From positions 25,112,001 to 25,176,000 of the forward strand of contig CM119372.1 of assembly GCA_051294905.1 (NCBI GenBank): a DNA stretch of 64,000 bases, in the 5' to 3' direction. Position numbers and translations under genes: made by a program. Under the pieces are notes generated by a model that saw nothing but the letters and a program-made list of their open reading frames with translations, was not told where the DNA came from and did not search any database. Below are positions 1-47,989 of this stretch, in pieces. The first letter of the stretch is position 1, and each line of letters begins with the position of its first letter. This DNA comes from Botryllus schlosseri (lineage: Eukaryota).

Positions 1-599
1 TTGCAAGTAATGCGAGACCCGTCAATAATGTTCATGAACTTGGGACGCGGGATTTGGGTTCGCTAGATGCTCGGGGATATTTTGAGTGACATTCGGCAGG
101 GGCTGTATCGCCGCTTGTCTTTGTCAGCAGGTAAACAACGTAACGAATAACTCCCGAGAGCTCTTGCAATCGCTTGTTAGTTAGGGCTATTGTTGTTGTG
201 TTTCCGATGTTGGCGGTTCCGTTCGTCCACCGTCCAGTTAACTTGTTGTTCGGGAATTCCTGTTGTTAGTTTCCCATGTAGTTTCGTAGCGTATTGTATC
301 ACACTGGCCATGTTCGATTTATTTTCGACGCCGTGTGATATTTTTAATCAAACGCTTTCGTTATAGTCTGTAAGCGCAAAAATATTTTGTTATTTCCACT
401 GCGCGATTACTTAACAATAGATGACATCAGTAATTCTGTACAGATATACTTCGATTTTTTTATAGAAGCATTTTAACGTACGTAAATCGGAAGACTAATT
501 ACTCATTACCGCGGTATGTCTTTCCGCTGCACATTCGGATTTTTCCGTTTTAATGAACATATATCATTGAATGAGATTAGATCGCAATCATTAGATTTA

Positions 600-1171
600 T
601 TAGACGGCAACGGCGGGAGAAAGTTGTGCCTTAATACATATTAAGATGATTTGTGAAAACGAGTCTTAAATTGTGTGCCATGCTAAAGCAAATTGCCGCA
701 GGGTGTGCTGACGACGTTTTCGTGTTGTGTTTTGCTGGAACTCGTTTCTAATCGCGACTTAATCGAACCTAGTCAGCATAGATTCGCGCTCATCGCGCTA
801 AAATATAAAGTGCGAGGCCTGTATTAATGCAGGATTTATGTAGGCTCGCATCATATGCAGTGTAGCTTCGTAATAATGACCGTCGCGACGTCAACAACGA
901 GACGAGATACGCGGCGTATTTTGTTATCGCCTTTGTCACGTCGAAAATATGTTGTTTCCTGGATTCGCAACCAGCTCTACTTTGTGTTTGGCCGTTGATT
1001 GATACTGGCCCGTGGGAGATATAAATACTGCGCGGAAGAATGGGGAGTAGGCAGACTCATGAAATCATGTTGCAAGTGATATTCTGATACAAGGATCCCG
1101 GTTGTGTTGTAATAAATAAGGCATAAGCAGTGCTTGGGTAAACGGAGAGTACAGTGCTGTAGCAGTGAAAT
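600..1171 (+). promoter_or_regulatory. Putative promoter / 5' UTR of the XRN1-tail-like gene
   Basis: CpG-rich by eye compared with the CpG-poor, TG/CA-rich introns at 1600-5200. TATAAA at ~1020. In-frame TGA (1166-1168) precedes ATG|gtaagc. Confidence 0.4.
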
Positions 1172-4100
1172 ATGGTAAGCTGTCTATAGTACAGATTCTG
1201 ACGAGTCGTTTTCCCTTTGTTCATTTTCAGTTATTTATATCCACATTACCCTGCGTTTGGAACTTTTGCCAATGCACGCGTGATCAATACACATCGCTAC
1301 TCGGCGTAGCATGCATAGCGTAACGTTGCTGCTAATCGTTCTATACTCGACACCATTGGCCGCCATACTTTGGCACACTCTCAGCGAAAGACTGCCATAT
1401 TATCAACAAACATACTTTCCCAACTGTCGGGAGTCCGAATCACGGCAAAGATCGCTATCATACTTATCGCGATATCATATTTCGAGTTTATTTGGATTTA
1501 TATCGACGCCTATCCAAAGCATTATGACTACCAGATATTGGGATGAGATTGATTGGTATATTCAGGTACTGTCACAGTCATGTTGATTAGCCGTTTTTCA
1601 AGTACTTATTGAAGGATACACATGGAATTGATTGTTTTATTTGTATCTTACATGCGCTCATTGAAATTGCGTTGGTATTGCTGTTGTGAGACCAACTTCC
1701 TGTATCTTAAGTTCTTCAAGCTTGTAACAATATCATCTCACAATAACATTGCCCAAGGAATTGTTACCCATATGATTATTGTTGATTTACTGATTCTATT
1801 CTAATACAGCAGCTCAACCAAGGCTTTTCCAATGCGATCCCATTGTATTTGCCAGAATGTCAATAGATTTAATGCTGTTTGAAATAGGTTATGCACTTGA
1901 TCACTGCTCAGTGCCCATTCATAGGAATTAACGTGTCTTATCTGTGATATTAAAGCCTGCATAATGCCAATTTTCTGACTGTGAATTTAACTTTCAGGAG
2001 GGCACGCAAAAGCTGTGCGAAATGCTCAAACACGAAGAGGATGATAATAACTCATCCAAGTGGTCAGCTGGCGAAGAAGGTATGATAAATATTGATAGTA
2101 GAGGCTGTTGTCTCAGTAAATATTTAAGTTATGTTTTCCTGTTGGCTGTGAAGATTGCAACCCTTTCTCCGTGTGTTGATTCATGCGCGTTTCACTCTGT
2201 CTACTCATATTGCTGATTGTTAAATCTTTGTTTTGTTACAGGCGTTCTGTAAATTAACATATTATAGTATGGTGTCCGCTCTCAAGGCTTGCTGCATAAT
2301 TGCTGGAATTATGTTGAGTTGATCATGATATTCTTCATCAAAATTTTTATTTTAAGATTGTCATGAAATTGCCTGTATAGTTATCATCAGACTTGATGGC
2401 TATAGTTGAAACTCTGCTTGGCTTCTTAGATTTTTTAAGTGTCGGCGCTGTTGTTTCCCATTGCAAATTTCCTGATAGCATGCATGCGATGCAAGGGTGA
2501 AGTTATTTTATATATGTGATGAATTTATACGCAGCTGAGGATGCACCAGAAGGCGCCAAAAACTCAGAAGAAAAAGAAAATCCAAGCACGCAAGAATTGA
2601 CAGACAAAATAGATAAATTGTAAGTTTACAACAGTGCAATATGAAAGCAACATGACAAAATGACCATATGAAGTATGTGCTGTCGGGTATCTTCGATGTG
2701 ATGCAATAGAATCAGTCTTGGGATGCTTCTCTGGCATCATTCTTTGCAGAATAAACTCCCATATTACCCTGGTGTGATTTATCTCGAGATGGCTCGCCTT
2801 GAATAGCTCGTTTTTCTATGAAGGTGGATAATGCGATTTGAATTACGGCCATGTATGCTTTTCAAGTGAATTTATCCCGTCTGTAACAAAATTATTGTAA
2901 GCTATGCATAAGAAATTAGCTTAGTATCCCCATGCCTGTTTGCAGAATCTTACAGTGTAGCAATGATTTCATGCAACCAAAATCTGTTGTTTGTGTTGCC
3001 ACTCCTGATTAATTCCACATCATGCTAATACAAGTCTAGTTCACGTTCTTTATGTGTTTGGTCTGTTTATAAGCCTATGCGTGCTGCTGATTGTGTTCAG
3101 CCTACTAAATATGCGACACATTTGGACTGTGTGCTGCAGTTTAATCGGTGCAGTTATTATCTGTTGGTTTGATCGTATTTATCATTTTAGAACTGTTAAA
3201 AGCGGGTCTGATGCAGACTCCGAGAAAGAAGAACAGGATGAATATATGGAACGTTCCACTTCAGTTGAAGATCAGGGTTCAAGTAAAAACATGAGTTTAT
3301 TGTTTTTTGTAGTCTTTCTTCCATCCAGAAAGTATGACCTCACTTGTTTTTGGGCTTTAACTATTGAGTTGTGTTTCTGAGTAAATAGTAGTATAGTAGT
3401 ATATATATATATATATATATATTGACCATCCGTTGTTTGGTCAGATGATATGGCAATTATAATCAGGCCTTTATTGATATAAAGCCATTGTGAGTGTGGC
3501 CTTGGTACACTGCTGTTGTAGGATTGGTCTACATTGACTGTCGCACAATTAAATGCTGAAGTTTGAAGTAGTTCTATAGAGACAAGGCAGCGCTGATTGT
3601 TTCAATAATATGAATAGTCCAGTCATCAGAAATTTGTACCTTGGACCATGTGGACCATGTTTTTTAACCAAACGGGGGTTTATATTACTTCCATTAAAAC
3701 TGCACGTTTTTGAAGCCAAACTTCTGACTTTGTCGTTTTAGATTCAAAGTTGAAAAAGAGTGTTTCGATATGTTTGTAGGCCTACATCTTTAATAAGTGA
3801 AACCGCCATGACAACTGTGTGATAGGGACCTTGTGTGATGATAACAGATAATCCTCTCCAAAATTGCACCGTTTTCATTGTCATGAGTCATATGTTTGTG
3901 CTGTGGTGCATCTTGCAACTTCCAACACTGGCACCTAGACCAAATCTGTTTCTATAAACTATTTTAGTAATTCTCGCACATTTCGTTCTTTCTTTTAAGT
4001 AGTTTTGGCACTCATTGGCAGACTGCTTCTACAGCAATTAGGTAGAAATTTACTATGTTACTTCGAACACATCTGGTTTGACATCCTCATTGTGATGTCT

Positions 4101-7100
4101 TCAACGTGTGGGAAAGATGGCAATTTTGATGAATGGAAATAACTGTGTGTGATGCGTGTGCCTGATTGTGTAAGTACTAGGTAGTTTTACAGAATATTTA
4201 GCAACTTGAATATTTCTAGATTCTATTCCAACCAACGATGCAATTTTATGACAAATCACGCCACTGTTAGTCCTGACCATCTAGTTAACAAAGTTGCGTG
4301 AGATTTATGCCCACAAATAGCGTGTAGATATAAATCCAATTGCCCATTCCAAAAATATATGACCTTATCAAACCACCGCAACTTCATCGCTAATTTGCCT
4401 TTTCTTTTTTTGTCCCTCTGCCTTCTCATTCACGAGCAACAATCTTTGGTTCAGATATTATCAAAAAGCAAACAAACGTGGAAGAACTCCAATCATTATG
4501 TATCAAGTGCAAGATGATGTCGCCGATATACACTTATTTCACAACTGATGACGTGAGTCCATGTAGCTTTCTAGCGAATATTTCTTTTATTAGCAGTTCC
4601 AAGTTCCAAGTACAATTGATATTGAAATTTGGTACTATGGTAATAATCAATCTATCTTTATGCTTATGTGTGGCTCTGCTTATTGAGAATTATTGCCTGA
4701 TTTTCCTCTGCATTATGATGGTTATTGTATTCTCAATTTACATTCAAAGCAATGCTTTAATGGACCAAACCGGATCTGAAACAATCCTATCGGAAATCGG
4801 CAAGCCGATGATGCGGCTTGTTCCCATTGTTGTTTAACGCAGAGGAAATTGGAATCTAAATGTGTTTTAATGATTTGTCCTAGTAATTTCCCTTTTGCAT
4901 ATTCTCATGGAATTCAGCGGCATGCATTGCTGTGGATGATTCACGTTCAGTGGCTCTATTTTTTGCAAAGCTGCGTCGAGTTGGGCTGATGCTCACCGGT
5001 AATGGTAGTACAATCACATTCCCACTTGTCAATTAAGTGTTGCCGCAATTTCAATTACGTTTTAAATACACACTTGTTGCCTTAGTGGTTTGAATTGATC
5101 AACTAATATAAGAAATTGCTTTGCCCGGTGCTATGTCGCATCTTTGGATTATTAATATTATGGAGCTTTCATTGTACGATGAAAATGAATAACCCCACTT
5201 TCTCCTGCTGATATTGGTCTCTGTTGTCAGTATATCATGTTAGCCTTTCTGTGCATATGCCTTTCCTTCGGCATCTGATTTCATCCTTTTTTCAGGAACA
5301 AGTCGTTTCGACTGTGCAACTGTGGAGTGGTGTGAGATTCAGCTCACGGCCACACAGGAGTAGAGACAAAGCTATGGAGGCGGCCGCGTATCAAGGACTC
5401 GCCTATCTCGTAAGCTATCTTGAGATTTTGAAACTCGGACTTGACTCAGTGGTGAATTGAAAATGACTGGTCTTGACTTTGAGTCAAAGCTGTAAAATTC
5501 AAATTGACTTGTGACTCGGAACCTTGTGACTTGGTTACAACCCTGTTTCAAACCTATACAAATCTAATTCCATTTTTACGAAACGAAAACGTAAAAAATT
5601 GTAGGAGTGGGAGCAGTCTGAAAATATGACCGCTCGAGTAGGCGGTGAAAGTAAGCCAAGCTTACTTGATTACTCTGAAAAAGTGGAAGTACTTTGCCAC
5701 TGACCTGACCACCTCTGGAAAAACTGTGCCGCCGTACTGTTGTCAAGATAATCGATATTATTGTCAGTTTCGCTCCCAAGTCAAGTCGATGCTAATATTG
5801 TCTTGGGCCGTCTTGATGCAGAGCTGCTGATATATATACAATATACACACCCGTCATGGGGTCGTGTTGAAATCCCTTCTCCAAGATGTAGTCGCAGAAA
5901 GTGTGAGAAACTCACCGATGCAGCGGTCAACAAATCCACTCGTTCTCGTATAGCACTACTAGAGGAGCGACTGTTAATGGCGGCGATTTTTCAGAAATAC
6001 GAACTCAAGGAGAACCGCCCGATATCAACGAGTCCGCCGTCTAGTGCGTACGTGACCGTCCACAACGTGGCTCCGAATCAGTACTATGCTCCCCATCCCG
6101 CCTACGGTATGTTGCTTCGCTCGGACGAAAATGATGACCATTGATTTTAGATTAGTTATTAGCTTATCGAAGAGGGCGTGAACAAGTGACATATGAGAGT
6201 GGTGACTTTTTTTTCTTTAGCTTGACCTAATTTTTGAAACACATCGATGGCCCTGTATGTAATAGCAATGTCTGATCATTTCTGCTTGGTGCTCCCTTAA
6301 TCAACAGCACATTGTTCAAACAACGGCATTTTCTTCTGAAAATTGTCAGAACACACACGCGCGCACAGCACACTCATCAACAGCTTATGTGGAATAACAT
6401 ATGTAATATCGAATACGTCATGCATTCGTTTCTCTTGTGATGCCAACCTGCCCCGTCTGTTTTTCAGCCACCCCTTTGTCGTATGCCACGTCGCCGCACC
6501 CTTATTACTACCCGGGTACACCATACCACTTGATGCCAACACGTACCGTTGGACGTCAGGATATCTCGCCGGCGGCCGTCATTCACCCGTCTTACACAGT
6601 GGGCCCAGGGCATCATATGGGCATGCCGCCGTACCAGCCGTTCATGCAATACCCGTACCTGCCCGTCCAGGTCAGCCCCACGCATCATTCAAAGCGAATG
6701 CCGCAGTACGCGAGCCGGCAGCCGCGGACAGAGTTCAAGATTCTCGACAAGCCGCCCGTTCCCAAGGAGACCAATGAGGTTCGTGTGGATGTATCATCCT
6801 GTTATTGACAGGATTGTAATGGACTCGAGTCATTTTTCAAATGCGTAAAATGACTCGACTTGTACTCAAGTCATTGTGCATGACTCGAACCAAGTCATAT
6901 GACTCGAGACTAGGACGATCAAGACATACATTTCATTGTGACTTCGAGGAATAGTAAAATTTCCACATTTATGGTATTTCGTCTATCCTTCCTGATACTT
7001 GGGAAAATAGGCCAGAAACTGTTTGGACTGAGGAAAATTACTATATTATAAATGCGAACCATTCTATATCACCTGAGCATGAGGTAAAAAAGTGGTTTAA

Positions 7101-8406
7101 CCGGATTGAACTGTAAACTGAACACTGAACAGTGAACATAATGACTTATACTCGGGTCAAAACACTATGACTCGGACTCGACCCTCTGCTAGCTGACTTG
7201 GACTCGGACCTGAATCGGTGGTGAATTGAAATTGACTTGTGACTTGGTGACGGTTACACAACCCTGGTTATTGAGTACTTTGGCGCTAACTAGTGGTGGC
7301 TCGGGCTCAAAGATTTAGGTCTAGTAGCGAGTGTGGATTTTTTCGTGTAGCTGAAATACTAGAAGAAGTACAGTAGGGTTGTTCGAAAATGACTGGCAAT
7401 TCACTGATTACATTGATAGGTTGCCTAAAAATTGCTGCACACCAAATTTGACTCGGTTTCCAACTAGTAGATGTGTACTCACAGGAGTAGGAATGTTTCG
7501 AACTTATTATGAAAAAACATTAAAAAATGTTTTCAAATTTTACTGTCAACACCATGAAATGGTTAAGTTGTCTAAAAAAAACGATGATGTACAATTTTTG
7601 CTCACTTCCAACCTCTAGAAGCGTAGTGAATACAGTTGAAAATATTGGATTCGCAAAACTAGCCTGGACTGTGGGTAATCCCAGAATTTTTAATGAAAAA
7701 ATCAAATAACCTCGCTTCTACGGGTTGGAATTGCGTGGAATTTGTTTTGCATCGTTTTTGTAGACAACTCAATAACAGTAAAATTTGAAAAGAATTTTTA
7801 AATTTTTTTGCAATAAATTCAAAATTTTCAAACTCCTGTGCGTTCACAACTGCCAGTTGGAATCGAGCCAAATTTGGTGTGCAGCGTATTTTCAGGCAAC
7901 CTAACAGTTTAATTAGTGAATCCCTGGAATCGGGACAAAAAGTTGTTTTAGAACAACCCTAATGTGCCAGTTATCCTTCGGAGCCATTTCGACAAAATAT
8001 GCTGGCATCGACTTCCTCCTACCTGCTCAAACATTATTCACTTCATTCAATATTTCTCTCATTACTCAAATGCGAGTCGAGTATCAATTTTAATGATTAG
8101 AGTTGAGTAATGATAATGGATTTCTTTGAGTAACGGAAATAGCTGTGGTATATCAGTTGCGTACCAGTGTAATTCCGATACTGCAAGAATATATGAAAGC
8201 CGTTGTGAGTCCAGTCTCGATTTTACTCCGATCTTTTTTTCCAGCAATCCGATCAGTGTGACGCATCCAACAGAGTTGATGGCAAGGCAACAACAACAGG
8301 GGACCAAAAAGACATTGAAAATAAAAATGAAAGGTCAAAGCCACAGAGACAGCAAAGCCAAACGAAACCAAAACTGGCAGTTTCGTTTACCCAAGCAAAG
8401 AAATAA
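1172..8406 (+). CDS. Spliced gene encoding an XRN1 C-terminal-tail-like protein (~352 aa; helical motif, dsRBD-like fold, Pro/Tyr-rich region, terminal KLAVSF motif); no nuclease domain in window
   Basis: Phase-consistent GT-AG exon chain: 1172-1174 (ATG), 1998-2079, 2535-2619, 3191-3282 (or 3276), 4455-4552, 5296-5409, 5995-6106, 6468-6778, 8245-8406 (TAA). Product: MEGTQKLCEMLK...EELQSLCIKCKMMSPIYTYFTTDDEQVVSTVQLWSGVRFSSRPHRSRDKAMEAAAYQGLAYL...YLPVQVS...KPKLAVSFTQAKK*. These motifs are collinear with the vertebrate XRN1 tail as recalled (MKGTRMLKEILK; ELSRIC...EAKEKAALFALQQL; FIPLQVT; RKLAVNF). Confidence 0.72.
4455..5409 (+). CDS. Two exons (4455-4552, 5296-5409) encoding a dsRBD-like alpha-beta-beta-beta-alpha module
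   Basis: LQSLC...P-x-Y...STVQL...F...KAMEAAAYQGLAYL fits the DSRM pattern. The exons join in phase 0 via a gtgagt donor and a tttttcag acceptor. Confidence 0.7.
5430..5545 (+). mobile_element. Right-end fragment of GACTCGAGTC-rich hAT-type MITE
   Basis: Ends ggttacaaccctg and matches the 3' ends of the copies at 6809-7266, 26914-27374 and 33009-33552. Confidence 0.7.
6809..7266 (+). mobile_element. GACTCGAGTC-rich hAT-type MITE
   Basis: TIRs caggattgtaa...acaaccctg; 8-bp TSD gttattga on both sides. Confidence 0.85.
7374..7961. mobile_element. TAGGG-terminal MITE (related to foldback 50609-51263)
   Basis: Termini tagggttgttc...gaacaacccta and internal inverted motifs (ggttgcctaa, caccaaatttg). 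No clean TSD. Confidence 0.65.
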
Positions 8407-9207
8407 CTCGGAACCCCAGTGTCTGTTAGCTGTTTTGAATCGTTATTAATTTACGGGGGCTTGCCTGTCATCGTTTATTTATTCCGATTTGTAGTAGGCG
8501 TTGAATTTCTGTACGTGTACTGTACCGGTTATGCACTATTTATTCGAGACATGTTCATAACTTAAGATTAATCGTGAAAGTCGCAACTCGGTGGTAGTGA
8601 TAGTGAACAGATGTATTCGGTAGTGTATATTTAAGGTGTGTACAGAATATGTAAACTGTGTATTTGGAAAAAAGTAGAGCATAATCAAACTGTAAACCGT
8701 GTAATCCGTTGTAGATTGTAATACCAAAATATTAACTTTTCATTGTTCTCGGTGTGTGCAAACTTGCATTTCGCGGTCTTTTATGTCCACTTTCTACCTT
8801 GACGCTTTTTAAAGTAAAAAGACCTTCCTTCGAAATATTTGTGATTTTTTAGGGTGCCTCAAGAAAGAGATAAGTTTTCATCACATCAGTAATTTAGAGA
8901 ACAGTGCTGTCATAATATCACAAGCACATCCAGGCAGAGCAGAAAGAAAATGTCAATTCACCTACCGTGCCGCCGGAGTAGAATGGGTGTAACTAATAGG
9001 ACAAGTTGTTTCAAATGAATTTGTTCCGACCAGAAAAATACTTGAAAAGATAAGTTTCTGTATAATATGGCATGCCATGATACGATATTTCAGTTCACGC
9101 TTGTGCATTATTCGTACAGTATTACGATAACTCTCCTTCAAATGTATTTCTGAACAACCCTGCTCTTCGCGCATTTTAATAAACCACGTAAATATATTGT
9201 GAGCAAT

Positions 9208-9325
9208 CAGTTTTTATTAATATTTTCATCATTTCAAAACATCACAAAACTGCGATACAATGAAAATGTAGGAAGGTGTCGAAACAACTTGGAGTAGCCT
9301 TTAAGATCAGACACCCACCTTAGCA
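9208..9325 (-). mobile_element. 3' UTR-only fragment of the CR1/L2-group LINE
   Basis: Reverse complement of ~11010-11130. Confidence 0.8.
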
Positions 9326-9714
9326 CCAGAAAAGGCACATGAATTGTCACTATGTACATTGGTTTTCGCATTGAGATTAGTCGCCGGAAATGTGGTATGT
9401 TGTTACCACGGCGCTCCCAAAAGCTCGCCAGGTCTGTTTGATTGTAATTACTTTTTGACTCCGAACAAACTACGGATTTGATACGAGATATGATTCAACT
9501 ACAGAAAGGAAAACCGGTATTCTATTCTGTGAAGGCCCGCGAGCAATTAGCATGCAAGGGCATCAGAATATTCTGCGACTAGCTACGACACCATTGTGTC
9601 ATCATCTTTTAAATATCACACGTTCAACCCAATAAATTACAGAAGAGTATACATGGCTCTAACAGGCATGAAGAGCAGAGACGGTGTTTCGCGTGATTGG
9701 GGTGCTGGTTACTT

Positions 9715-11138
9715 CGATCGCAATCTCCAACAGTGGCTGAACAGTACTATGACATCTTGGAGAAACGAAGTGTGGGATGTAGCATTTTTCTTGATCTTAA
9801 AAAAGCATTTGACTGCGTCGATCACAGTATTCTTCTCTCAAAATTGGCGCGCTACGGGTTCCGGGGTCCACAACTAGAGCTCATGAAAAGCTACCTGACT
9901 GGGAGATATCAAATGGTTTCGATATCCAACACTTTGTCCTCCCCCCACCTTGTTACCTGTGGTGTTCCGCAAGGCTCTGTTCTTGGACCTGTCCTTTTTA
10001 CTTTATATGTCAATGATATCTTTGAAACCTCATCATTGAATACCACACTCTTCGCTGACGATACTCACCTCCTATCTCACGCACCTACTACCGCAAGCTT
10101 GAATGCCGTCACCAGTGATCAAATGCCCAAAGTGCATGAGTGGACGTCCCAGCCTTCGGGTTAACGCTGCGAAATCCCAATTATTGGTCGTGAACTCCTG
10201 CGATAACCTAACCGTTGACATCGCTGGCCAACCAATTTCCAACACTAAAAATGCCAAATACCTTGGTGTTTTACTGGATTCGGACATGTCCTGGAAGAGT
10301 CACATACAATCACTCAAACCACGACTATCGAAGATATGTGGTCTATTTCGCCGCCTTAGCTACATTCTGCCAGTCAGCGTGCTGTTGATACTCTTCAACT
10401 CTCTATTCCTATCAAAGTTACAATACGGAATTCTTTGTTGGGGTGCTGCCTGCAAGAATACAATTGACCCACTGCAAAAACTTCAACATCGGATCATCCG
10501 TATCATTGCCAAAGCCCCACGGGGGCCTGGATGTGCAACTGATAAATCGCTTCTCAAAAGATTTGGTGTTCTAAACTTAGAAGATATCAGGAAGCTAGAA
10601 ATTGCCAAGTTTATGTATCAGTTCCATTGCGGTCAATGTCCCTCAAATTTCAAGGACTACTTCACCTCGGAGACAAAAGCGCACAAGTACAGCACACGCG
10701 CGTCAACGAAGAACAACTGCCACATGATCAGGACTGAATACAAGAAAACGCATTGCTCCATCAAGTATGCCGGACCCCAATTGTGGAACAGCATCTCGCC
10801 GGCTATCCGACAGTCGTCGAGCATGTCCGCATTCAAGTCGAAATACAAGCAATTTCTTCTAAATCAATACTAGCCAGTCTTCAGGATTACCGGACCACGA
10901 CCTAACATCGACCTCGCCCTCCGCCACATGCCACCCCATTTTGTCGCTTGCGTCTTATATTCTCTGCATTACTTTTCATTCAGTGTGCATGCCTCTTATT
11001 TACTTCGCCTAGGCGAAGGTGGGTGTCTGATCTTAATGGCTACTCCAAGTTGTTTCGACACCTTCATATCTTTTCATTGTATCGCAGTCTTGTGATGTTT
11101 TGAAACGATTAAAATATTAATAAACCTGACTGACTGAA
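9715..11138 (+). mobile_element. 5'-truncated CR1/L2-group (Crack-like) non-LTR retrotransposon, RT with frameshift
   Basis: RT motifs FLDLKKAFDCVDH, GVPQGSVLGP, FADDT, KYLGV. Frameshift at ~10150. C-terminal SIKYAGPQLWNSI...FKSKYK, stop at 10873. The 3' UTR ends aataaa + (ctga)n. Confidence 0.93.
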
Positions 11139-11539
11139 CAGAATGGCCTTCTGAGATGAAATATCCTACTGTGCAGACTCATTATAATTGCTAAATTGTC
11201 AATAGCCTAGGCTACTGATACAAACATTTTGCTGTTTAGAGATGTTTTCTTGGGGATTGTGGAAAAAAAGTTGGATAAGTAAAGTCAATCATGGTGACTT
11301 CGAAATGTTTACAAAAATCCACTTTCTCCTGTGATATACATAGGCTAACCCAGGGATATCTAGATATCCCTGACATAACTATTTTCCATAATAACTTCAA
11401 GATAAGCTGCCAGATAGAAATGACCAGGCTTGACGTTATATGTTCATTAAAAAAATACTTTGCCAATTTTATTGGCATATTTGTTGCGATCATACCGAAA
11501 TGTGTCGTCTGAAACGTTACGCGTTATTATTACATTCGC

Positions 11540-13461
11540 CACCACCTATATTGTTTGCGGTAATGATCAATGATTTACCGAGCTCGTTAGGTCATCGGTC
11601 TGAACATGCGGTGTTCGCAGATGACTGCGCTGTTTGGGATAGCGGTCTTCTTATCCAGCCCCTCTTGTCTTCCATTCAATCATCACTTGATGTAATAAGC
11701 GACTGGTGTTCCAGATGGGGATTTACCATCAGCAAGGCAAAGACCGTAGGCATGCTGTTCACGAAGAAAAGGAAAATTCCTCCACTCATCTTGAAAACTG
11801 GTGACCATGAACTTGAATTTGTCGACACCTACAAATATTTGGGTATCACGTTTGACAAATTGCTTAACTATAAGCAACATATCGATACGATTTCCAAAAA
11901 GTGCTCCAACAGACTGAATCTAATCAGAGTCGTGACTGGTACCGCATGGGGAGCGAGTAAAAAACCATTGCTGCAACTTTTCAGGGCGCTGATACGCTCA
12001 CTGATTGACTATGGGTTACCAGCATATTACTTCGCCCCAAAAAAGTATCTGGACAAGTTACGCACCATACGAAATCAAGCTCTCCGCCTCTGCTGTGGAG
12101 CAATGCGTAGCACCCCCATTTGTGCACTGGAAGCATCATGTGACGAGCTTCCTCTCCATCTGCGCCACAAACAGCTTAGCCTTAACTATCGCTGCCACCT
12201 TAGAGGTTACCAGGCTCACGAACACCCAACATTAGGAGTGCTTGAAGACTCTTGGCAGGAGATATATAGCCTCATGAACCCAAAATTCATTACCTTCAAC
12301 ATCGCCACCAATGTCGAGTCTCTGAATAACCTTGTCTTGGAAAGAAAAAGTCTTCCAAATTTGCCTCCATGGCTGATTCAATCACCTAATATTGATTTAG
12401 ACCTTGCAAAAATCATTAAAAAAGATATCGCACCTCTGTCACATAAACCCATAGTCCTGGACTTCATATTCGAACGATATAGGGATGCCACTGAAATATA
12501 CACTGACGGCTCCAAATCAGCAGAGGGAGCCGGTTTTGCCTTTACCATCCCGTCGCTGATGATAAACTTTTCCCAGTCGTGCTCCACTCTTAAGTCAATC
12601 TTCTCCATAGAAGCACAAGCCATTCTCCACGCTCTAAAATGGATCTGCCAGAATGGCTCATACCAACATACATATCTGATTCTATCGGACAGTCTGAGCG
12701 TGCTATCCGCTATGACCAACCTGCAGGCACCGCAAACGCAGAATGTTATATTTGAATGTGGTCGCTTGCTGAATCAAGTGGTCCAGAAAGGCGCCATTGT
12801 TGTCCTGGCCTGGGTACCGGGGCATGCTGATATCGGTGGTAATGAGTTAGCTGATAAATTGGCTTGGCAAGCTGCCAGAACAAATATCGAAAATTCCCCT
12901 TCTCACACGCTTCCAGACAAAATTAGCCACGCTGAGGCGAAAGCCAAAGTACGTCAATACTGTAGAGCGACCTGGAACGTCGAATATCAACGAAATGAGC
13001 GTGGAGGTCACTATCGAAATTTCCATAGATCATTGACTGATGGCCACTTTCCATCGATGCATCGACATAGGCTTTACGAACGAATAATATTTCGGCTTCG
13101 TTCAGGCCATTGCCGCCTGAAAGCGCATTTATATAAAATTGGATGTAGCGACACCGACCTATGCGACCATTGTAAAGTACCTGAAACAGTCGGAGCATTT
13201 TTTGCTGCACTGCAATCGATATGATTTTCATCGGAACTTTTTAATCGACAGGGCGTGCGAGCTCAAAATCACTGCAACACTCGAAAATCTGCTGATCATC
13301 CCCGAAATGTTATCCCATGTTGCAGAATTTGTTATATCTTGTGGCACTTACTTGTAAATCGGTTATTGCCCATATTTTGGTAAATCGCTCATTCTAGTCC
13401 GTGACGCACCTGGCCTTACAGGCGAAAAGCGTCACTCATCTTTTCATCAATAATAATAATA
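11540..13461 (+). mobile_element. 5'-truncated I-group (I/Nimb/Ingi-like) non-LTR retrotransposon with RT, RNase H and CCHC knuckle
   Basis: FADDCA and YKYLGITFD (RT); IYTDGSK, EAQAI, ILSDSLS, WVPGHADIGGNELADKLA (RNase H). CDHC...ETV-EHFLLHC is split by a +1 frameshift at ~13192. Stop at 13357; (taa)n tail at ~13449-13461. Confidence 0.92.
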
Positions 13462-19276: not shown

Positions 19277-30388
<11,112 letters not shown>

Positions 30389-35980: not shown

Positions 35981-37276
35981 GATTACCAGAGAACCCGTCC
36001 CTTGGAGAACCCGTCCCTACCAACTCGGCCCTCGGAGAACCCGGCCCTTGGAGAACCCGGCCCTCGGGAAATTTTGCATATCAAGCACGCGTGGTCTACT
36101 TGTGGTATTCACGGTGTTTTTCGACTACTCTGGACCTCGGTGAATGCGGCCCTCGAACAATTTTAAATCAAAATGCAATAAATGTGTACCCGGCCCTCGG
36201 GAAATTTTGTATTCACCGGCAACCCTAACCCTAATATCCTACCCCAACCCTAATATCCCCCTCCCCCAACCCTAATATCCCACCTCCGGCAACCCTAATA
36301 TCCCACCCCCGGCAACCCTAATATCCCACCCCCGGCAACCCTAATATCCCACCTCCACCAACCCTAATATCCCACCTCCGGCAACCCTAATATCCCACCT
36401 CCACCAACCCTAATATCCCACCCCCGGCAACCCTAATATCCTAACCCTAACATCCTACCCCAACCCTAATATCCCCCTCCCCCAACCCTAATATCCCACC
36501 TCCGGCAACCCTAATATCCCACCCCCGGCAACCCTAATATCCCACCTCCACCAACCCTAATATCCCACCCCCGGCAACCCTAATATCCTAACCCTAACCC
36601 TAATATCCTACCCCAACCCTAATATCCCCCTCCCCCAACCCTAATATCCCACCTCCGGCAACCCTAATATCCCACCCCCGGCAACCCTAATATCCTAACC
36701 CTAACCCTAATATCCTACCCCAACCCTAATATCCCCCTCCCCCAACCCTAATATCCTACCTCCGGCAACCCTAATATCCCACCCCCGGCAACCCTAATAT
36801 CCCCCTCCCCCAACCCTAATATCCCACCTCCGGCAACCCTAATATCCCACCTCCACCAACCCTAATATCCCACCCCCGGCAACCCTAATATCCCACCTCC
36901 ACCAACCCTAATATCCCACCCCCGGCAACCCTAATATCCCACCCCCGGCAACCCTAATATCCCACCCCCGGCAACCCTAATATCGATATGTGAACGTCGC
37001 GTTCTCTCCCGCGCTTGGCGCTTGCGCAATCCGTGATCACGTGATCTGATCACGCCGTGACTGCGTTACCTACGCATGCCCTGACCTCCTTACAAGACCG
37101 ACAAATCAGTTGATAATAACATTATTACTTTATTAATTCATATTAATACTTGTGAATACACCTAATTTCTAAATTTCCCGAGAAATTCACCGAGGGACGG
37201 GTTCTCCAAGGGCCGGGTTCTCCGAGGGCCGAGTTGGTAGGGACGGGTTCTCCAAGGGACGGGTTCTCCGGCAACC
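35981..37276. mobile_element. TIR DNA element with ~85-bp modular inverted ends and internal telomere-like minisatellite
   Basis: Left end gattaccagagaacccgtcccttggagaacccg... is the reverse complement of right end ...cgggttctccaagggacgggttctccggcaacc. 8-bp TSD atagcgac (35973-35980, 37277-37284). Confidence 0.85.
36216..36984 (+). repeat. Telomere-like C-rich minisatellite (AACCCTAATATCC + variable spacer)
   Basis: About 35 units, mostly ~19-23 bp, with a constant aaccctaatatcc core and a small set of spacer variants (cacctccggc, cacccccggc, cacctccacc, ccctcccc, tacccc). Occasional (aaccct)2. Confidence 0.95.
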
Positions 37277-40841: not shown

Positions 40842-42746
40842 TTATCGGCCCTGCAATAATTCTGATACCAATGGATCAAATATGTGCTTCATTGAGCCTG
40901 CATTACGAATGCGGTGTGACATTGAATTGTGATATGCGGTCAAATGTCGTACATCAGATAACTTTAATAATAGCTTTGGAAATAAGTACGGATCCTGTGG
41001 ATGATTGAATTTTATCAGAGATTCAAGTGCAAATACAACATTGGTTTGAAGTTCTTCAACTTTGTCCGGACATTTCAAATCTGGTCGGTCACGGGATAAT
41101 ATCACAACAGATGTGACAACTGCAAGTTCCTCATCAGTGAGACCCATATTAGCAATTGTTTCTGCGAATCTAAATTGGGATAGAAGAAATTCGCCAATAT
41201 AGTCTAATTTTTTCATAAAATCAAAAGTTACGTATGCGTAAATTGCTGGAATAATAGCGCCATTGAAAAAAACAGTGCACGGCAAAAGGAATGGAATCAC
41301 CTCGAAGCAGGCAAATTTAAGTAAAATGACTTGATCATCGAAGGGTAATTGCGTAAATCCAGGGATGTGTTTTGAGAATTGCGATAGCTCGCCGACAAAT
41401 TTTGCAATTCGTTGTTGTGTCGCTTGATAGTAGTATCTCATTAGTTCTATTACATAGCTGTGATTCTGGGTGCTGGTGACAATAACTGGATGAATATTTT
41501 CCTTTCTGGATTTTTTCAAAATACTCATTAATTCTGATTCAGCTCTTCCTAATTCATGTTCTATGCGTGAGTGGACGTGCATATCGCGCATGAAGTAATT
41601 GAAAGACTTTAATAAAGACATGCCATGCTCTGTTGCATGAAGTTCTATGTCTGATTCTGTGATGCCAGCATGTCGAAATCCAGTTCCAATCTCCGGAACA
41701 TGTTTCAGCAAAAACGCTATTTTGTCAATGGTGACTTTCTGCTGCTGTACACATTCCTCCGAGTCAGCAGTCTGTTTGACAGATGCCAAACTAGATTCCA
41801 TAAAAAAATCAGCATTCTTATCCTTCTCCAATAGCTGAATGATGTCTTTGAAATTCGCGGCGCTTGAAATATCAGTATTGAAACTGTCAAGAGATTGGAA
41901 AATATTACATTTCGTAAGGCAATGCCTGGCAGAAGAGCAGGTAGAACCACTCGTTCCAGAAGCAGAGGATGTGGAAGGACATTCTTCGTTCACTTGATTA
42001 TCAGGGTGCATAGACAAAAGGTCTTCTATAGACTCTATCATAGACAGCTGTGAGTCGGGTTGTGTTCGGTTATCCCATAACCTCTTCATTGCAGCATTTG
42101 TCACTGTTAATTTATTATAGGCAGGTAAAAGAATACCAGTTAGCTTTTTGTACCTCTCTTCTATCTGGACGCTCGCTTGGGACAGATGTTGAGGTAGCTC
42201 TTCGTTGATTTTACTTATGATTTTTTTCTTCTCAACCTTGGTCATTCTACCGAAACGAATAGCATTGTGGGACATGCCGAGTTTGGTGCACTTTTTATAT
42301 CGGCAATACTGACATTTATTCCGGCTTTTGGTAGTTATACGACAATCACTCGAGCACTCCTCGTATTCCAATTTCATTCTAACTGTCCTACGAAAGAAAC
42401 CTTTGCAGCCTTCGCAGGCGTGCACTCCGTAATGAAATCCAGATGCACGATCGCCGCAAATTGAACATTTAATGCCAAGTTCTGACGATTTCCATTCATA
42501 TTTCGGCTTTCTCTTCCTATTTTGCAGTGACGATGATGTTGACTGCGCTAGCTCCGGAGATATGAGGGTTGTCATTACGTTGACGACAGAGGATTGTGAC
42601 ACGACGTTGCAAGCATCTTTTGTAGCCATACCACTTATTCTTATCTGAGAAAAAATTTGCCACCTGCAAAAATCATTGTGCCATATCGTCTCACTTATCA
42701 GCTGCCGCAAATTGTTTTTTTTTTTGGGAAAAGGCTTTGCAACCAT
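40842..42746 (-). CDS. PPAR: PPAR-like nuclear receptor (NR1C), intronless ORF; likely start Met at 42629 (595 aa)
   Basis: [31 protein letters not shown] with the PPAR-type 3-residue D-box (C-SSD-C), RNKCQYCR and [23 protein letters not shown]...DQVILLK...DRPDL...[13 protein letters not shown]...PLVSELL. An acceptor-like ttttttctcag lies 15 nt before ATG 42629. Confidence 0.93.
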
Positions 42747-45700
42747 ACATTAAGCAACAACAAAGTGCGTCACTATCATTTTGTTAATTTGGTTATAGTC
42801 CATAGAAGCATATTTTTGGTGACATTAATTTACTGTTCAGCAGTGCGTTGTCACACTCACAGGTACACTCAGTGATGTTGGTTTGGGCTTTTATTATATC
42901 GAGTAAAGGGTGATTAAAGATAGGCTTTAGTATTTGATTGTACCAGGGGATTTTCAACGTATTCCTGGTGACTTTTCCAATTTAGTGCATGTGGCCAGTT
43001 GTCTCTTTTTAGACAACAGAAGGGTATAGTAAATCCATTGTATTGTGATGAGCACCTTTCTTCCAACATTGCTCTGTTGTTCGCCTACATGGCAATTATA
43101 GGCCATACTGGAAACCGATTTTCCAGAGTTGCAAGATTGCTAATCTGGAATTAACATCTGAATTACTTAAAAGCAGTGCTTCTCAACATTTCTGCAGAGG
43201 ATAAGGTAATAACGGACGTTTCTTCAGTAGAAGCAGTTTTTAGCCATCAAGTACAGGTTCTCATTGCCTGGTAATGACAAATTTCTTTCAAGTGGGAAAG
43301 ATTTTATGGGTAACTGGTGATTGCCAACTTGGCAAGATGCATTCTGCTACTAACACAAAATAACTAATACTGCTGGTTAAATGAGTGTGATCTCTATAGA
43401 TATATTCCATGATTAGCCTATACCGTTTCGATGTTATGACTAATGCACTGATTAAAATAATAATAAATTATAAAGTTTTCTAAACAACATTCTAGTAAGC
43501 AGAACATACTGACTAACTAATTCATGAATAAATGCTGAAGTTGAAGTGGAAACACAGTCTAAAATGTAATTCGCTGAAGCAGTGAAAATGGAAAACAGCT
43601 ACTCCAATCCAATTTGCCCTAAATTAGATTGCAATCAAACATTTGGACTTGACATTACATATCATATTTAGTCCACAGGATCTACTGCCATCACCTCAAT
43701 TATCGTTGAATGTTGCAGAATGCGTTATATCCTGGGGCAATATCATTTAGCTTAATGTAACATATGAACAGTATACACATCACATACCGTGAGGCAAAAA
43801 ACAGCCCACTAATAATGATGTTAATAATAATAATTTGGGGTTAACTTTTACAGGCAACAATCATAAATATTTTTCGACCCTAATTCGGCTCATGATCCAC
43901 TATTTGAGGATCCATACTCTGGGCCATAATAACTATCTGATGCCACCCGGCACTAATAAAATACGGTCTCTATTTCAAGAATATAATAACATCAAATAAA
44001 TAAATAAATTTTAAATCTAATAAAGAAATTCCAATGCTGCTATGAAATTTTTTGAGCAGTAGCAGAAAGGTAGCAATAATGGGATTTGACCGATGAACTA
44101 ATCCCTCCCGCAATAAGCATATCAAGCAGGCCTCAAGTCTGACGAGTGCAACCATTGTAAACCTCATAAATGAAAACACAATATCTCAAATAGGCCTATA
44201 GGATGGACATACCCCATCCGCATAAATCCAATACCTGAGTGGCTAGAAGTAGTCATCTGGTTTCAGCTAAAATTGAACGAATAAAATTAATGTTTCGTGT
44301 ATGTTCCATAGTACGGTGCACCGACGTGAAAAAGGTTCCTCTATCGATTGTATCGGAAGCATGTAATCACATCCCGATTAGTGTGGTATAGATCTGCATA
44401 AATATACATACATACACTAAGCTAGAGGGAAAATGCATCCACGTTGAATCATGCACAGAGGTCCAATCAATTACTGGAAAACAATCAATACACCACATGG
44501 TACAGTCAAAATCAGATTATAACTAGGATCGAGTGAATTAATGTTTCTGCACGAACTAAACTGTTAGCGATTCTAATTTATTTCTACACTGTGCAACATT
44601 GACCAATGAATGACATTGGGATTGATATATTGGTGAATAGGCAGGTACAAGTACTAGTCCATGTTTTGAAAAATCACTAACAGTTTAGTAGAACCCGTCT
44701 GCTAGACTGTCCTCGGGAAACAAGTATCTTGTTGAGCATAAAAAATTGGTATTCATACAGTTAGGTCATAGACAGCCATACGTTAAGGAGTACTTTGAAG
44801 CTGTTTACAATATGCTAATCGGAAAATTCCGGCAATAGGGCAGTGGTATGTGGCCTCATTTTACGATTAAACTGATTCTACCAATAGCCAAAATTGAAGA
44901 TTCACCATCGTTTTTGTTCATATAAAGTAAGACCAGTCAAGATGCCGATTTCAACATCAAATTAAATTAATCCAAAAATTCAAACGGGATGGTTTGCAGC
45001 ATCTTGAAAAGGCCCAGAGAAAGAGTGAGCCGAGCTCCGAAGTCGGCAGCAGAGACCTGCAATTAGACGCATGTAATCGAAAGCGAATGGAAGATTAAGA
45101 GTGCGCGAGCATGCAAGTCGTCCCCGGTATACAACAGCAAAGAAACTGAACTATACGAATGCATTGTCGTGGTTCACCAGGCCTAAACAGGCGATGAGCG
45201 CAACTGTCGTTGTCGTGTCAAATTCACCATCGTTTTTGTTCATATAAAGTCAGACCAGTCAAAATGCCAATTTCAACATCAAATTAAATTAAACCAAAAA
45301 ATACCAACGGGCTGGTTTGCCAAATACCAATCTCCAAAAACAACAAACGCATCGTGCCATATACAAGCAAACACATCAACACCTTATTATGAAACAATTA
45401 GGCAAATTCATTGAGGATTACCTTAAACCATGTGTCGTAAAGCAGAAGAGGCTTCGCTACTTTTCCCAAATAACGAGATTGCAGTTATATATCAATCCAT
45501 CAACAATTTGAAACACGGGACCGGGTAATGTCATAAATAAATGTACACAAAACTAGTCGGGACGGAATAACACAACCGACGCATGTAACACCGATGAAAC
45601 AGCCTTCCAATTAACCACAAAAAAAAAAAAACAGAATCAGGCTTGACACAAATTGGGACTGAAAAAGGAAATTGCCATGCTCTGGAAAATGTGAAATCAC

Positions 45701-45759: not shown

Positions 45760-47989
45760 TTATCGGCCCTGCAATAATTCTGATCCCAATGGATCAAATA
45801 GGGGGGAGATAGCGTAGTGGTGACGATAAGTGCCTACCAAGCAGGCGGACCCGGTTCGATTCCCGTCGGAGGTTCATTTGGGCTTCTCTTCCCCCGCTGC
45901 CCAGAAAAAGACCCGAAGAAAGAAAGCACTCACAAAGAATGGAAAGAACTAATGGAAAGGCTTCAAAAAAGATCAACATCGAAAAAGAACTGTGACATCG
46001 GGCACTCTAGGCCGAGGTGGATGTTTGAGTAAAGGATCGCTACTGATGCGTGTCGTTCGACATCCTCCTATCTGTTAGTTACATTGCATTGTGTCTTATC
46101 GCATTGTACATTGTATGTGTAGCTTGTTCAGATGAAAATTATAACCCAATGTATTGTATTGTATTGTAGGTGTTTCATTGAGCCTGCATTACGAATACGG
46201 TGTGACATTGAATTGTGATATGCGGTCAAATGTCGTACATCAGATAACTTTATTATTAGCTTTGGAAATAAGAACGGATCCTGTGGATGATTGCATTTTA
46301 TCAGAGATTCAAGTGCTAATACAACATTAGTTTGAAGTTCTTCAACTTTGTCCGGACATTTCAAATCTGGTCGGTCACGGATAATATCACAACAGATGTG
46401 ACAACCGCAAGTTCCTCATCAGTGAGACCCATATTAGCAATTATTTCTGCGAATCTAAATTGGGATAGAAGAAATTCGCCAATATAGTCTAATTTTTTCA
46501 TGAAATCTAAAGTTACGTATGCGTAAATTGCTGGAATAACAGCGCCATTGAAAAAAACAGTGCACGACAAAAGGAATGGAATCACCTCGAAGCAGGCAAA
46601 TTCAAGCAAAATGACTTAATCATCCAAGGGTAATTGCGTAAATCCAGGGATGTGTTTTGAGAATTGCGATAGCTCGCCGACAAATTTTGCAATTCGTTGT
46701 TGTGTCGCTTGATAGAAGTATCTCATTAGTTCTATTCTATAGCTGTGATTCTGGGTGCTGGAGACTATGACAAGATGAATATTATCCCTTCTGGATTTTT
46801 TCAAAATACCCATTACTACTGATTCAGCTCTTCCTAATTCAAGTTCTATGCGTGAGTGGACGTGCATATCGTGCATGATGCAAATGAAAGACTTGAGTAA
46901 ACACATGCCATGCTCTGTTGCATGAAGTTCTATGTCTGATTCTGTGATGCCAGCATGTCGAAATCCAGTTCCAATCTCCGGAACATGCTTCAGCAAAAAC
47001 GCTATTTTCTCGATGGTGACTTTCTGCTGCTGTACACATTCCTCCGAGTCAGCAGTCTGTTTGACAGACCCCAAACTAGATTCCATAAAAAATCAGCATT
47101 CTTATCCTTCTCCAATAGCTGAATGATGACTTTGAAATTCGCGGCGCTTGAAATATCAGTATTGAAACTGTCAAGAGATTGGAAAATATTACATTTCGTA
47201 AGGTAATGCCTGACAGAAGAACTGGTAGAACCACTCGTTCCAGAAGCAGAGGATGTGGAAGGACATTCTTCGTTCACCTGATTATCAGGGTGCAGAGACA
47301 AAAGGTCTTCTATAGATTCTATCATAGACAGCTGTGGGTCGGGTTGTGTTCGGCCCATAACCCATTGCAGCATTTGTCACTGTTAATTTATTATAGGCAG
47401 GTAAAAGAATACCAGCTAGCTTTTTGTACCTCTCTTCTATCTGGACGCTCGCTTGGGACAGATGTTGAGGTAGCTCTTCGTTGATTTTACTTATGATTTT
47501 TTTCTTCTCAACCTTGGTCATTCTACCGAAACGAATAGCATTGTGGGACATGCCGAGTTTGGTGCACTTTTTATATCGGCAATACTGACATTTATTCCGG
47601 CTTTTGGTAGTTATACGACAATCACTCGAGCACTCCTCGTATTGCAATTTCATTCTAACTGTCCTACGAAAGAAACCTTTGCAGCCTTCGCAGGCGTGCA
47701 CTCCGTAATGAAATCCAGATGCACGATCGCCGCAAATTGAACATTTAATGCCAAGTTCTGACGATTTCCATTCATATTTCGGCTTTCTCTTCCCATTTTG
47801 CAGTGACTATGATGTTGGCTTCGCTATAGCTCCGGAGATATGAGGGTTGTCATTACGTTGACGACAGAGGATTGTGACACGACGTTGCAGGCATTATCTC
47901 AAAAAAATTTGCCACCTGCAAAAATCATTGTGCCATATCGTCTCACTTATCAGCCACCGCAATTTTTTTGGAAAAGGCTATGCAACCAT
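45760..47989 (-). pseudogene. PPAR: PPAR-like pseudogene (duplicate of 40842-42746)
   Basis: 25-nt deletion removing the likely start ATG (~47894); +2 insertion creating TAG (~47826); deletions at ~47355-47365; -1 at ~47090; CAA>TAA at 46616-46618; -1 at ~46380; SINE insertion at 45801-46168. Confidence 0.95.
45801..46168 (+). mobile_element. tRNA-Gly-derived SINE
   Basis: A-box tagcgtagtgg and B-box ggttcgattccc. The head tagtggtgacgataagtgcctaccaagcag resembles tRNA-Gly(TCC). (gtatt)n tail; absent from the paralogous site at 40881. Confidence 0.85.

Follow-up and report, generated by a model that had tools for sequence, protein, structure and literature searches.

The window considered here is a 64,000-nucleotide stretch of the Botryllus schlosseri genome (GenBank assembly GCA_051294905.1, contig CM119372.1, positions 25,112,001 to 25,176,000; G000:C2:25112001-25176000 on the + strand of the 496-Mb genome), and the element under study is the set of exons near its 5' end that encode the C-terminal tail of the exoribonuclease XRN1. 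Positions 1231-8805 form a transcription unit inside the tunicate XRN1 locus, and its product is a stand-alone tail mRNA that begins with a trans-spliced spliced leader (SL). The initial annotation of the stretch, made from the letters alone, had proposed that the tail is expressed as its own protein, and the RNA bears this out in the form of an mRNA that is SL-capped at 1231 and contains tail coding sequence only. We favour, with a probability of about 0.6, a reading in which one XRN1 locus houses a nuclease-free, SL-capped tail unit with a promoter of its own, the tail exons probably being shared with full-length XRN1. The motifs of the XRN1 tail and SL trans-splicing are both already known; the part for which our literature search gave no description is a predicted stand-alone, probably conserved tail protein with its own first exon.

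RNA data for window positions 1-9000 comprised one raw-read run (X23; ~6% of reads sampled, 839 reads placed) and three further runs (X7, X14 and X5) in the form of unstranded contigs. Seven splice junctions, all with GT..AG ends, were seen in the X23 reads and the X7, X14 and X5 contigs (table 1), and these account for seven of the eight introns in the initial annotation. The remaining one, 1174>1998, was recovered from none of the four runs, and the first exon proposed at 1172, consisting of an ATG alone, is thus unused. The real partner of the acceptor at 1998 is a donor at 1565, joined in 15 X23 reads (compared with 3-20 for the downstream joints) and in X7 and X5 contigs. The upstream side of this joint is a previously overlooked exon, here called exon 1', over which the X7, X5 and X14 contigs have no letters differing from the genome. 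Depth in X23, computed from binned depth, is ~30-34 over exon 1', ~35 over exon 2 and ~8-41 over the later exons. Exon 1' has stops in all three frames (1281-1283, 1307-1309 and 1321-1323 in the open reading frame [ORF] table), so that any upstream frame spliced into it ends within 93 bases. We also considered that exon 1' might be an exonised repeat or transposon, which its single-copy status in the genome rules out.

The 5' end of the mRNA is defined by 20 X23 reads with a loose 5' part at 1229. This loose part has a median length of 51 letters, of which those preceding the leader are presumably library adaptor. Its last 23 letters, followed by an AG that coincides with the genomic AG, are the “Chordata 1” spliced-leader consensus (PMC3795323 Table 1). 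The leader 21-mer occurs in 513 genomic copies, compared with none in a reversed control, and is absent from 114 kb around the locus even when three errors are allowed. The presence of the leader on reads at 1231 together with its absence from the locus indicates that mature mRNAs begin at 1231 via SL trans-splicing, with the leader joined at an AG acceptor (1229-1230) that has a polypyrimidine tract. The mature mRNA is ~1.8 kb long and consists of exon 1' and the eight tail exons.

Six of the 513 copies of the leader 21-mer were inspected. ATT precedes all six, GT follows three of the six, and four of the six have a TGGACC...GGTC element ~45-60 nucleotides (nt) downstream in flanks that are otherwise unrelated. 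Many of the copies may be pseudogenes or retroposed leader-bearing sequences as opposed to SL RNA genes.

Exon 2 to the stop codon forms an open frame of 351 amino acids (aa), close to the ~352 aa originally proposed; the frame was correctly called, its start at ATG 1172 was not, and the ORF that begins at ATG 1311 in exon 1' is 436 aa long. The first 17 bases of exon 3 (2535-2551) are swapped for 23 other letters in X23 (13 reads) and in X5, and X7 and X14 have the reference exon-3 start; the variant is an in-frame (+6) allelic difference. Nine of the 16 single nucleotide polymorphisms listed in the tail coding sequence are synonymous, which, together with the in-frame exon-3 indel, points to coding constraint.

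Table 1. Features of the XRN1 tail unit and its splice junctions (window coordinates)
Feature	Position	Strand	Evidence or remark
TATAAA, candidate core promoter of tail unit	804..809	+	sequence; promoter putative
Putative outron	835..1230	+	removed on trans-splicing; holds the initially annotated ATG|gtaagc (1172-1180)
Trans-splice acceptor AG	1229..1230	+	mature mRNA begins 1231; 20 X23 reads with loose 5' part
Exon 1'	1231..1565	+	contigs 1229-1560 (X7), 1193-1560 (X5), 1291-1512 (X14); joint 1565>1998; overlooked in initial annotation
Three-codon upstream ORF ATG CAC GCG TGA	1272..1283	+	sequence
436-aa ORF start	1311..1565	+	ATG 1311, hydrophobic residues 3-21, RYWDEIDWYIQ (1533-1565)
Exon 2	1998..2079	+	starts EGTQKLCEMLK (1998-2030); 70% identity to S. 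clava XRN1 residues 1604-1633
Exon 3	2535..2619	+	RNA joints
Exon 4	3191..3282	+	acidic, YMERSTSVED
Exon 5	4455..4552	+	first half of dsRBD, from ~4478
Exon 6	5296..5409	+	second half of dsRBD
dsRBD block	4478-4552 + 5296-5409	+	vertebrate XRN1 counterpart ~194-250 residues from C-terminus
Exon 7	5995..6106	+	RNA joints, S. clava alignment
Exon 8	6468..6778	+	P/Y-rich; YLPVQVS (6656-6676), EFKILDKPP
Last coding exon	8245..8406	+	KLAVSF 8371-8388, stop 8404-8406
3' untranslated region	8407..8805	+	X7 contig reaches 8805; X23 depth drops in 8701-9000
Junction	2079>2535		13 X23 reads, carrying variant exon-3 start
Junction	2619>3191		3 X23 reads
Junction	3282>4455		20 X23 reads
Junction	4552>5296		8 X23 reads
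Junction	5409>5995		4 X23 reads
Junction	6106>6468		13 X23 reads
Junction	6778>8245		20 X23 reads

The window tail is homologous to the tails of XRN1 proteins. A phmmer search of the 351-aa tail against 29 XRN1 proteins matched one of them, that of the ascidian Styela clava (S. clava; P0001, 1979 aa), with an E-value of 7.8e-76. The tail corresponds to the last ~375 residues of this protein, and in tblastn its residues 1604-1975 align to the successive exons of the window in collinear order. The initial annotation had named a series of XRN1-tail motifs, and these are real: among nine vertebrate XRN1 proteins examined, each was found in eight, in the same order as in the window, with MKGTxxLKE(M/I)LK 311-345, FIPLQVT 93-118 and KLAVNF 6-7 residues from the C-terminus. 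The window counterparts EGTQKLCEML, YLPVQVS and KLAVSF lie 341, 87 and 5 residues from the end, matching the vertebrate order and spacing, and the window tail spans roughly the last 340 residues of the vertebrate XRN1 tail. A profile of 21 vertebrate tails detects the S. clava tail (E 1.1e-5). By homology and collinear motifs the window tail is an XRN1 C-terminal tail, and it resembles the metazoan C-terminus in having (E/K)GTxxLxE(M/I)L, a block with the fold of a double-stranded RNA-binding domain (dsRBD), (F/Y)(I/L)P(L/V)QV(T/S) and a final KLAV(N/S)F, ordered alike and about equally far from the C-terminus. It differs from metazoan XRN1 in being carried on its own SL mRNA with a private first exon, in having a hydrophobic N-terminus and the sequence RYWDEIDWYI, and in being nuclease free. 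Pfam searches with single tail exons returned no families (48 queries including the 43 interval ORFs described below), and a word-indexed protein search with the largest tail exon (window:6470-6778) among longer proteins gave 11 candidates, none of which scored. KLAVSF resembles the EDC4-binding end of vertebrate XRN1 and is a putative EDC4 motif; in human XRN1, the EDC4-binding region is residues 1650-1706 and the segment termed CIR is residues 1174-1649 (Chang et al. 2019, PMC6753473).

The block between the first two motifs had been described as dsRBD-like, an assignment upheld by profile and by predicted fold. It aligns across tunicates and vertebrates, and the alignment of the window block with that of S. 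clava is gap-free in its core. A profile of eight XRN1 blocks (A1) searched against PDB matched R2D2 (E 6.5e-5), DRB2 (0.003) and TARBP2 (0.0047); a second profile (A2) matched only R2D2, with an E-value of 0.89. The AF2 model of the S. clava block (pLDDT 85.6) has an alpha-beta-beta-beta-alpha topology, and all 46 Foldseek matches listed within ranks 1-50 are dsRBDs or dsRBD-containing structures (best E 1.7e-3, probability 1.00, TM ~0.7). As modelled, the fold of the tail block is that of a dsRBD, which may bind double-stranded RNA. More generally, chordate XRN1 tails contain a well-folded dsRBD by profile and predicted fold. The XRN1 C-terminus is called “predicted to be unstructured” in a 2025 paper (PMC11982291). 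Our literature search for a dsRBD in XRN1 found no description of such a domain, which is not proof of its absence from the literature.

The initial annotation described the locus as being without the exonuclease, which does not hold: the sole XRN1 core in the genome lies upstream of the window on the same strand. Searches of the whole genome with Pfam models place XRN_N, XRN_M, D1, D2/D3 and SH3-like on this strand at C2:25068434-25086780, and residues 1-1228 of S. clava XRN1 align exon by exon at C2:25067673-25086876. The catalytic exons occupy C2:25067673-25086849, 26-45 kb upstream, and the SH3-domain exon is 80% identical to S. clava XRN1 and 65% identical to Phallusia mammillata XRN1 (1934 aa). 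S. clava residues 1313-1365 and 1451-1553 correspond to two further exons (C2:25091263-400 and 25093563-838). A genome search with P0001 gave 29 matches, of which 27 are collinear on the C2 locus and two fall on an XRN2-like ORF on C8. The genome thus has one XRN1 core and one tail, ~26 kb apart, in the same order as in the S. clava XRN1 model. The SL-mRNA product does not itself qualify as an XRN1 exoribonuclease, since catalytic XRN_N/XRN_M, D1, D2/D3 and SH3-like are not part of its polypeptide.

The last recognisable upstream exon ends in phase 0 at L009:1883 (C2:25093883) with the donor AGG|GTGAGT, and exon 2 also starts in phase 0, so that a direct splice of ~20 kb would read ...GIVQR|EGTQKL... 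in frame. In the XRN1 records of S. clava and Phallusia, the core is joined directly to EGTxKLCE. The XRN1 model of Ciona savignyi (H2ZAS5, 1261 aa) consists of the core domains only. A word-indexed protein search with the last upstream exon (L009:1551-1883) gave 29 candidates, none of which scored.

The C8 ORF (L011:490-3378; G000:C8:13145497-13148385, + strand) is an intronless ORF of 962 aa with XRN_N (E 6e-100) and XRN_M (E 5e-153). This XRN2-like ORF matches S. clava XRN1 over residues 1-619 only. Animal XRN genes are not usually made of a single exon, and the C8 ORF may be a retrogene.

ATG 1311 is in frame with the tail and opens the 436-aa ORF; translation from the next ATG in this frame, at 1524, would yield 365 aa. 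From N- to C-terminus, the predicted product would comprise a hydrophobic segment that is a possible membrane anchor, a helix containing RYWDEIDWYIQ-EGTQKLCEML, an acidic linker, the dsRBD fold, a P/Y-rich low-complexity region and the C-terminal KLAVSF, and would lack a nuclease domain. A search of 1.84 billion representatives with a profile of the XRN1 dsRBD block returned 173 matches at E <= 0.001. Among the best 150 of these 173, three short proteins align to the 436-aa ORF well past the dsRBD. One is the 384-aa “Uncharacterized protein” H2ZAV2 (P0061) of C. savignyi (blastp E 8.6e-28, ORF residues 61-242 on 16-186), and the others are P0110 (435 aa, E 2.4e-16) and P0067 (536 aa, E 1e-7, from ORF residue 31). 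The H2ZAV2 alignment begins at ORF residue 61, upstream of the in-frame ATG 1524. P0110 and P0067 are encoded on contigs of 1943 and 2068 nt, respectively, near the size of the ~1.8-kb window mRNA.

These three proteins resemble the 436-aa ORF in overall layout, that is, a hydrophobic N-terminus, RYWDE(I/L)DWYI(K/Q)E..KL.E.L, an acidic linker, a dsRBD and a P/Q/Y-rich region, at 27-37% identity. The motif RYWDE(I/L)DWYI(K/Q)E(G/S)(T/A)xKLxExL is found in all four proteins, and in B. schlosseri it bridges the 1565|1998 junction. Likewise, each of the four has one hydrophobic segment, located in its ~40 N-terminal residues (KD15 2.2-2.35, with a maximum of 1.19 after residue 80), a dsRBD and an (E/N/Q)(F/Y)xxxDxP motif, so that the combination of hydrophobic segment, RYWDE(I/L)DWYI(K/Q)E and dsRBD seen in H2ZAV2 recurs in 4/4 proteins compared. 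H2ZAV2 ends in TLAISF, comparable with the KLAVSF of the 436-aa ORF, and P0110 and P0067 are without a recognisable KLAxxF end. RYWDEIDWYI is absent from the S. clava and Phallusia XRN1 records, in which EGTxKLCE is entered from unrelated sequence. Pfam detected only a sub-threshold dsrm on P0061 (E 0.22) among P0061, P0110 and P0067. An AF2 model of H2ZAV2 from a three-sequence alignment is poor overall (pLDDT 49.7), with a helix at 32-61 that includes the motif and the dsRBD at 123-187 being usable. Metagenome scans for P0110-like loci gave no confirmed locus, and ESM Atlas yielded only dsRBD leads, under 0.9. Taken from sequence comparison, the 436-aa ORF likely represents a conserved tail-only protein that is also encoded by at least one other sea squirt, C. 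savignyi. In our literature search, we found no description of a tail-only XRN1 isoform; the C. savignyi gene model exists as uncharacterized.

In Ciona, the first functional acceptor is the preferred site of leader addition, and outron length has a median of 458 bp (PMC11155486). Given this preference, a leader at 1231 would imply a separate pre-mRNA start. Low-depth unspliced contigs collinear with the genome extend upstream of the acceptor (X5, 840-1191 and 1193-1560; X7, 871-1047). Beyond these contigs, X5 and X7 have no depth over 601-839 by bin arithmetic, X14 has a contig at 530-688 and X23 depth is zero across 301-1200. From the TATA box at 804 and the contig ends, the pre-mRNA probably starts near 835, which would give an outron of ~395 nt and place the unit's own promoter near 800-840. 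A second TATAAAT is present at 1020-1026. The tail mRNA is thus similar to the Ciona SL system in its leader, which is the chordate consensus, in its polypyrimidine tract and in the length of its putative outron (~395 nt compared with the median given in PMC11155486). Within the same region, an AATAAA is found at 1112-1117, without RNA coverage.

The CpG-rich region noted before the gene in the initial annotation is present, with a CpG observed/expected ratio of 1.6-1.7 over positions 1-1000 that drops to 0.43 at 1501-2000. It belongs to a wider landscape. The 19.3-kb gap between the last recognisable upstream exon and exon 1' (G000:C2:25093884-25113230; L009:1884 to window 1230) has a ratio of 1.28 (n = 19 1-kb windows), with all 19 consecutive windows at 1.0 or above, compared with 0.96 in the core (n = 26, p 6e-7), 0.81 in the tail unit (n = 7, p 6e-6) and 0.94 in the remaining window (n = 55, p 2e-8). 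In the 26-kb interval from the SH3-like exon to window position 1231, none of the 43 ORFs of at least 80 aa matches Pfam.

SL trans-splicing in tunicates is also associated with operons, the genes of which abut in Ciona with <100 bp between them (PMC2760879). The tail unit is unlike these: no exon is recognisable in the 19.3 kb upstream of it and positions 301-1200 have no X23 depth, which rules out the downstream gene of an operon, and no X23 transcript ends just upstream of 1231.

The reading that we prefer, one locus with two products, can be set out as follows. A promoter near 800-840 would give rise to the pre-mRNA, the tunicate spliced leader is trans-spliced at 1231 to form the mature mRNA, exon 1' blocks every incoming frame, and ATG 1311 opens the 436-aa frame. 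Full-length XRN1 would probably use the same tail exons by splicing the phase-0 donor at C2:25093883 to 1998 across an intron of ~20 kb. Sharing of the tail exons is suggested because the single core and single tail are collinear on the same strand, because the phase-0 donor at L009:1883 matches the phase-0 start at 1998, and because fused records exist for two ascidians, a millipede, a hemichordate and vertebrates. The first base of exon 2 is also where X7 and X14 contigs start, pointing to a further upstream partner for this exon. A number of points weigh against this reading. Exon 1' is as deep as the tail, so mRNAs that join full-length XRN1 to the tail can make up no more than a small share in X23. 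No core-to-1998 junction was seen in the RNA placed on window positions 1-9000, and among the X23 loose ends listed (the least supported having 12 reads) none lies directly before exon 2. The RNA comes from one raw-read run at ~6% of reads and three unstranded contig sets; the placement of the promoter draws on a TATA box and unstranded contig ends, with the X14 contig (530-688) further upstream; and the leader consensus has an agreement of 0.82, so that a minority of the reads at 1231 could differ. The S. clava XRN1 record is a predicted model and the Phallusia record is as deposited, and annotation pipelines are known to fuse neighbouring tunicate genes (PMC2760879). Homology to vertebrate tails runs through the S. 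clava bridge (1.1e-5) and the motifs, the vertebrate-tail hidden Markov model giving no significant score on the window tail itself (E 0.28, 1/2000 shuffles higher). The stand-alone protein is supported at the level of RNA and sequence, the tunicate placement of its three relatives holds for H2ZAV2 only, and its hydrophobic N-terminus, not a feature one would expect in a decay factor of the cytosol, may be a signal peptide that is cleaved off.

Several of these points would be accommodated by complete fission, in which the XRN1 core and tail are two genes, with a core mRNA that terminates upstream of the window and a tail made solely as a stand-alone protein. We think this rather unlikely, although it would account for the equal depth of exon 1' and the tail exons in X23, with 1565>1998 (15 reads) on a par with the downstream joints, for the separate pre-mRNA start implied by the leader at 1231 and for the CpG richness of the 19.3-kb gap relative to core and tail unit (1.28 vs. 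0.96 and 0.81). In C. savignyi, the annotated XRN1 (1261 aa) has the core alone and the tail protein of 384 aa is annotated separately, as fission would have it, and the fused tunicate models may be prediction artefacts of the kind described in PMC2760879. However, the last recognisable upstream exon ends in a strong donor, AGG|GTGAGT, whose phase reads into 1998, and no alternative terminal exon or intervening gene was found in the interval (0/43 ORFs of at least 80 aa matching Pfam). The break of the X7 and X14 contigs exactly at the start of exon 2 suggests a second upstream partner, and the fused form is present in the millipede, the hemichordate and vertebrates. At the other extreme, exons 1998-8406 could be the conventional 3' end of XRN1, used only for the full-length protein, with exon 1' mRNAs being non-functional products that arise when a cryptic acceptor within a long intron is used. 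The collinearity of the locus with the one S. clava XRN1 model and the presence of one core and one tail agree with this, but we consider it improbable given that exon 1' equals the tail exons in abundance in X23, that the coding end of exon 1' and the N-terminal layout are kept in three other stand-alone proteins, one of them from a distantly related ascidian, and that P0110 and P0067 are on ~2-kb contigs, the size of the window mRNA. The gene structure first proposed, a 352-aa protein starting at ATG 1172-1174 and spliced 1174>1998, had in its favour a donor that fits the consensus well (ATG|gtaagc) and a TGA upstream in the same frame (1166-1168), both of which are present in the sequence. 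It has next to no chance of being correct, as the joint is found in 0/4 runs, X23 depth is 0 over 301-1200 and the donor lies inside the stretch removed by trans-splicing at 1231.

Two side observations concern the introns of the tail unit. Intronic repeats at 5433-5546 and 6830-7240 have summed RNA contig depths of 1,800-11,800 and 340-3,800, respectively. They show many loose ends, with back-joints linking both, and resemble an abundant expressed short repeat such as a miniature inverted-repeat transposable element.

Downstream of the tail unit, the window contains a retroelement at 9697-13221 (+ strand; RVT_1, RNase_H), a KDM2-like gene at 22012-30385 (+ strand; JHD, CXXC, F-box, LRR) and two nuclear-receptor ORFs on the - strand (40845-42749 and 47288-47806; zf-C4, one with a ligand-binding domain). 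A 23-bp minisatellite of 33.5 copies at 36227-36984, the unit of which contains telomere-like AACCCTAA, explains a dip in GC skew at 36-38 kb. It is flanked by inverted 16-bp tandem arrays (35989-36064 and 37193-37269) and may be a transposon.

On the one-locus, two-product reading, the tail protein would most likely engage the partners of the XRN1 tail without bringing a nuclease, either as a scaffold or as a competitor, and its conserved hydrophobic N-terminus suggests that it may do so at a membrane. In humans, these partners are EDC4, CCR4-NOT and PatL1 (PMC6753473). According to the same study, the XRN1 tail of human and fly couples deadenylation, decapping and 5'-3' decay, and parts of it are dominant negative without the nuclease when over-expressed; CCR4-NOT and PatL1 are binding partners of CIR, over-expression of which on its own blocks deadenylation, and that of CIR plus the EDC4 motif does not. 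If tunicate XRN1 were instead split into separate core and tail proteins, a scenario we hold as a tentative and less probable one, a membrane-anchored tail with the tryptophan-rich helix RYWDEIDWYI would tether decapping and deadenylation factors, and possibly double-stranded RNA, at a membrane, either independently of the nuclease or in competition with it. Kidney-specific WNK1 (PMC6014176) is a comparable case in that a large enzyme locus has an internal start from which, with a first exon found nowhere else, a short product lacking the enzyme is made as well. The likeness would be one of analogy only, as WNK1 is an unrelated protein, the tail unit obtains its 5' end via SL trans-splicing and the full-length form here is a predicted one.

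The two predicted forms would be distinguished by their junction peptides, DWYIQ|EGTQK for the stand-alone protein and GIVQR|EGTQK for full-length XRN1, and gene models of tunicate XRN1 may be erroneous fusions or erroneous splits. The case shows how, through SL trans-splicing, the 3' module of a large gene can turn into a cistron of its own. If our reading is correct, the mRNA-decay network would have an endogenous regulator or localiser in a tail protein that is natural, conserved and free of the nuclease, and the private first exon and possible membrane anchor add to its interest in this role.

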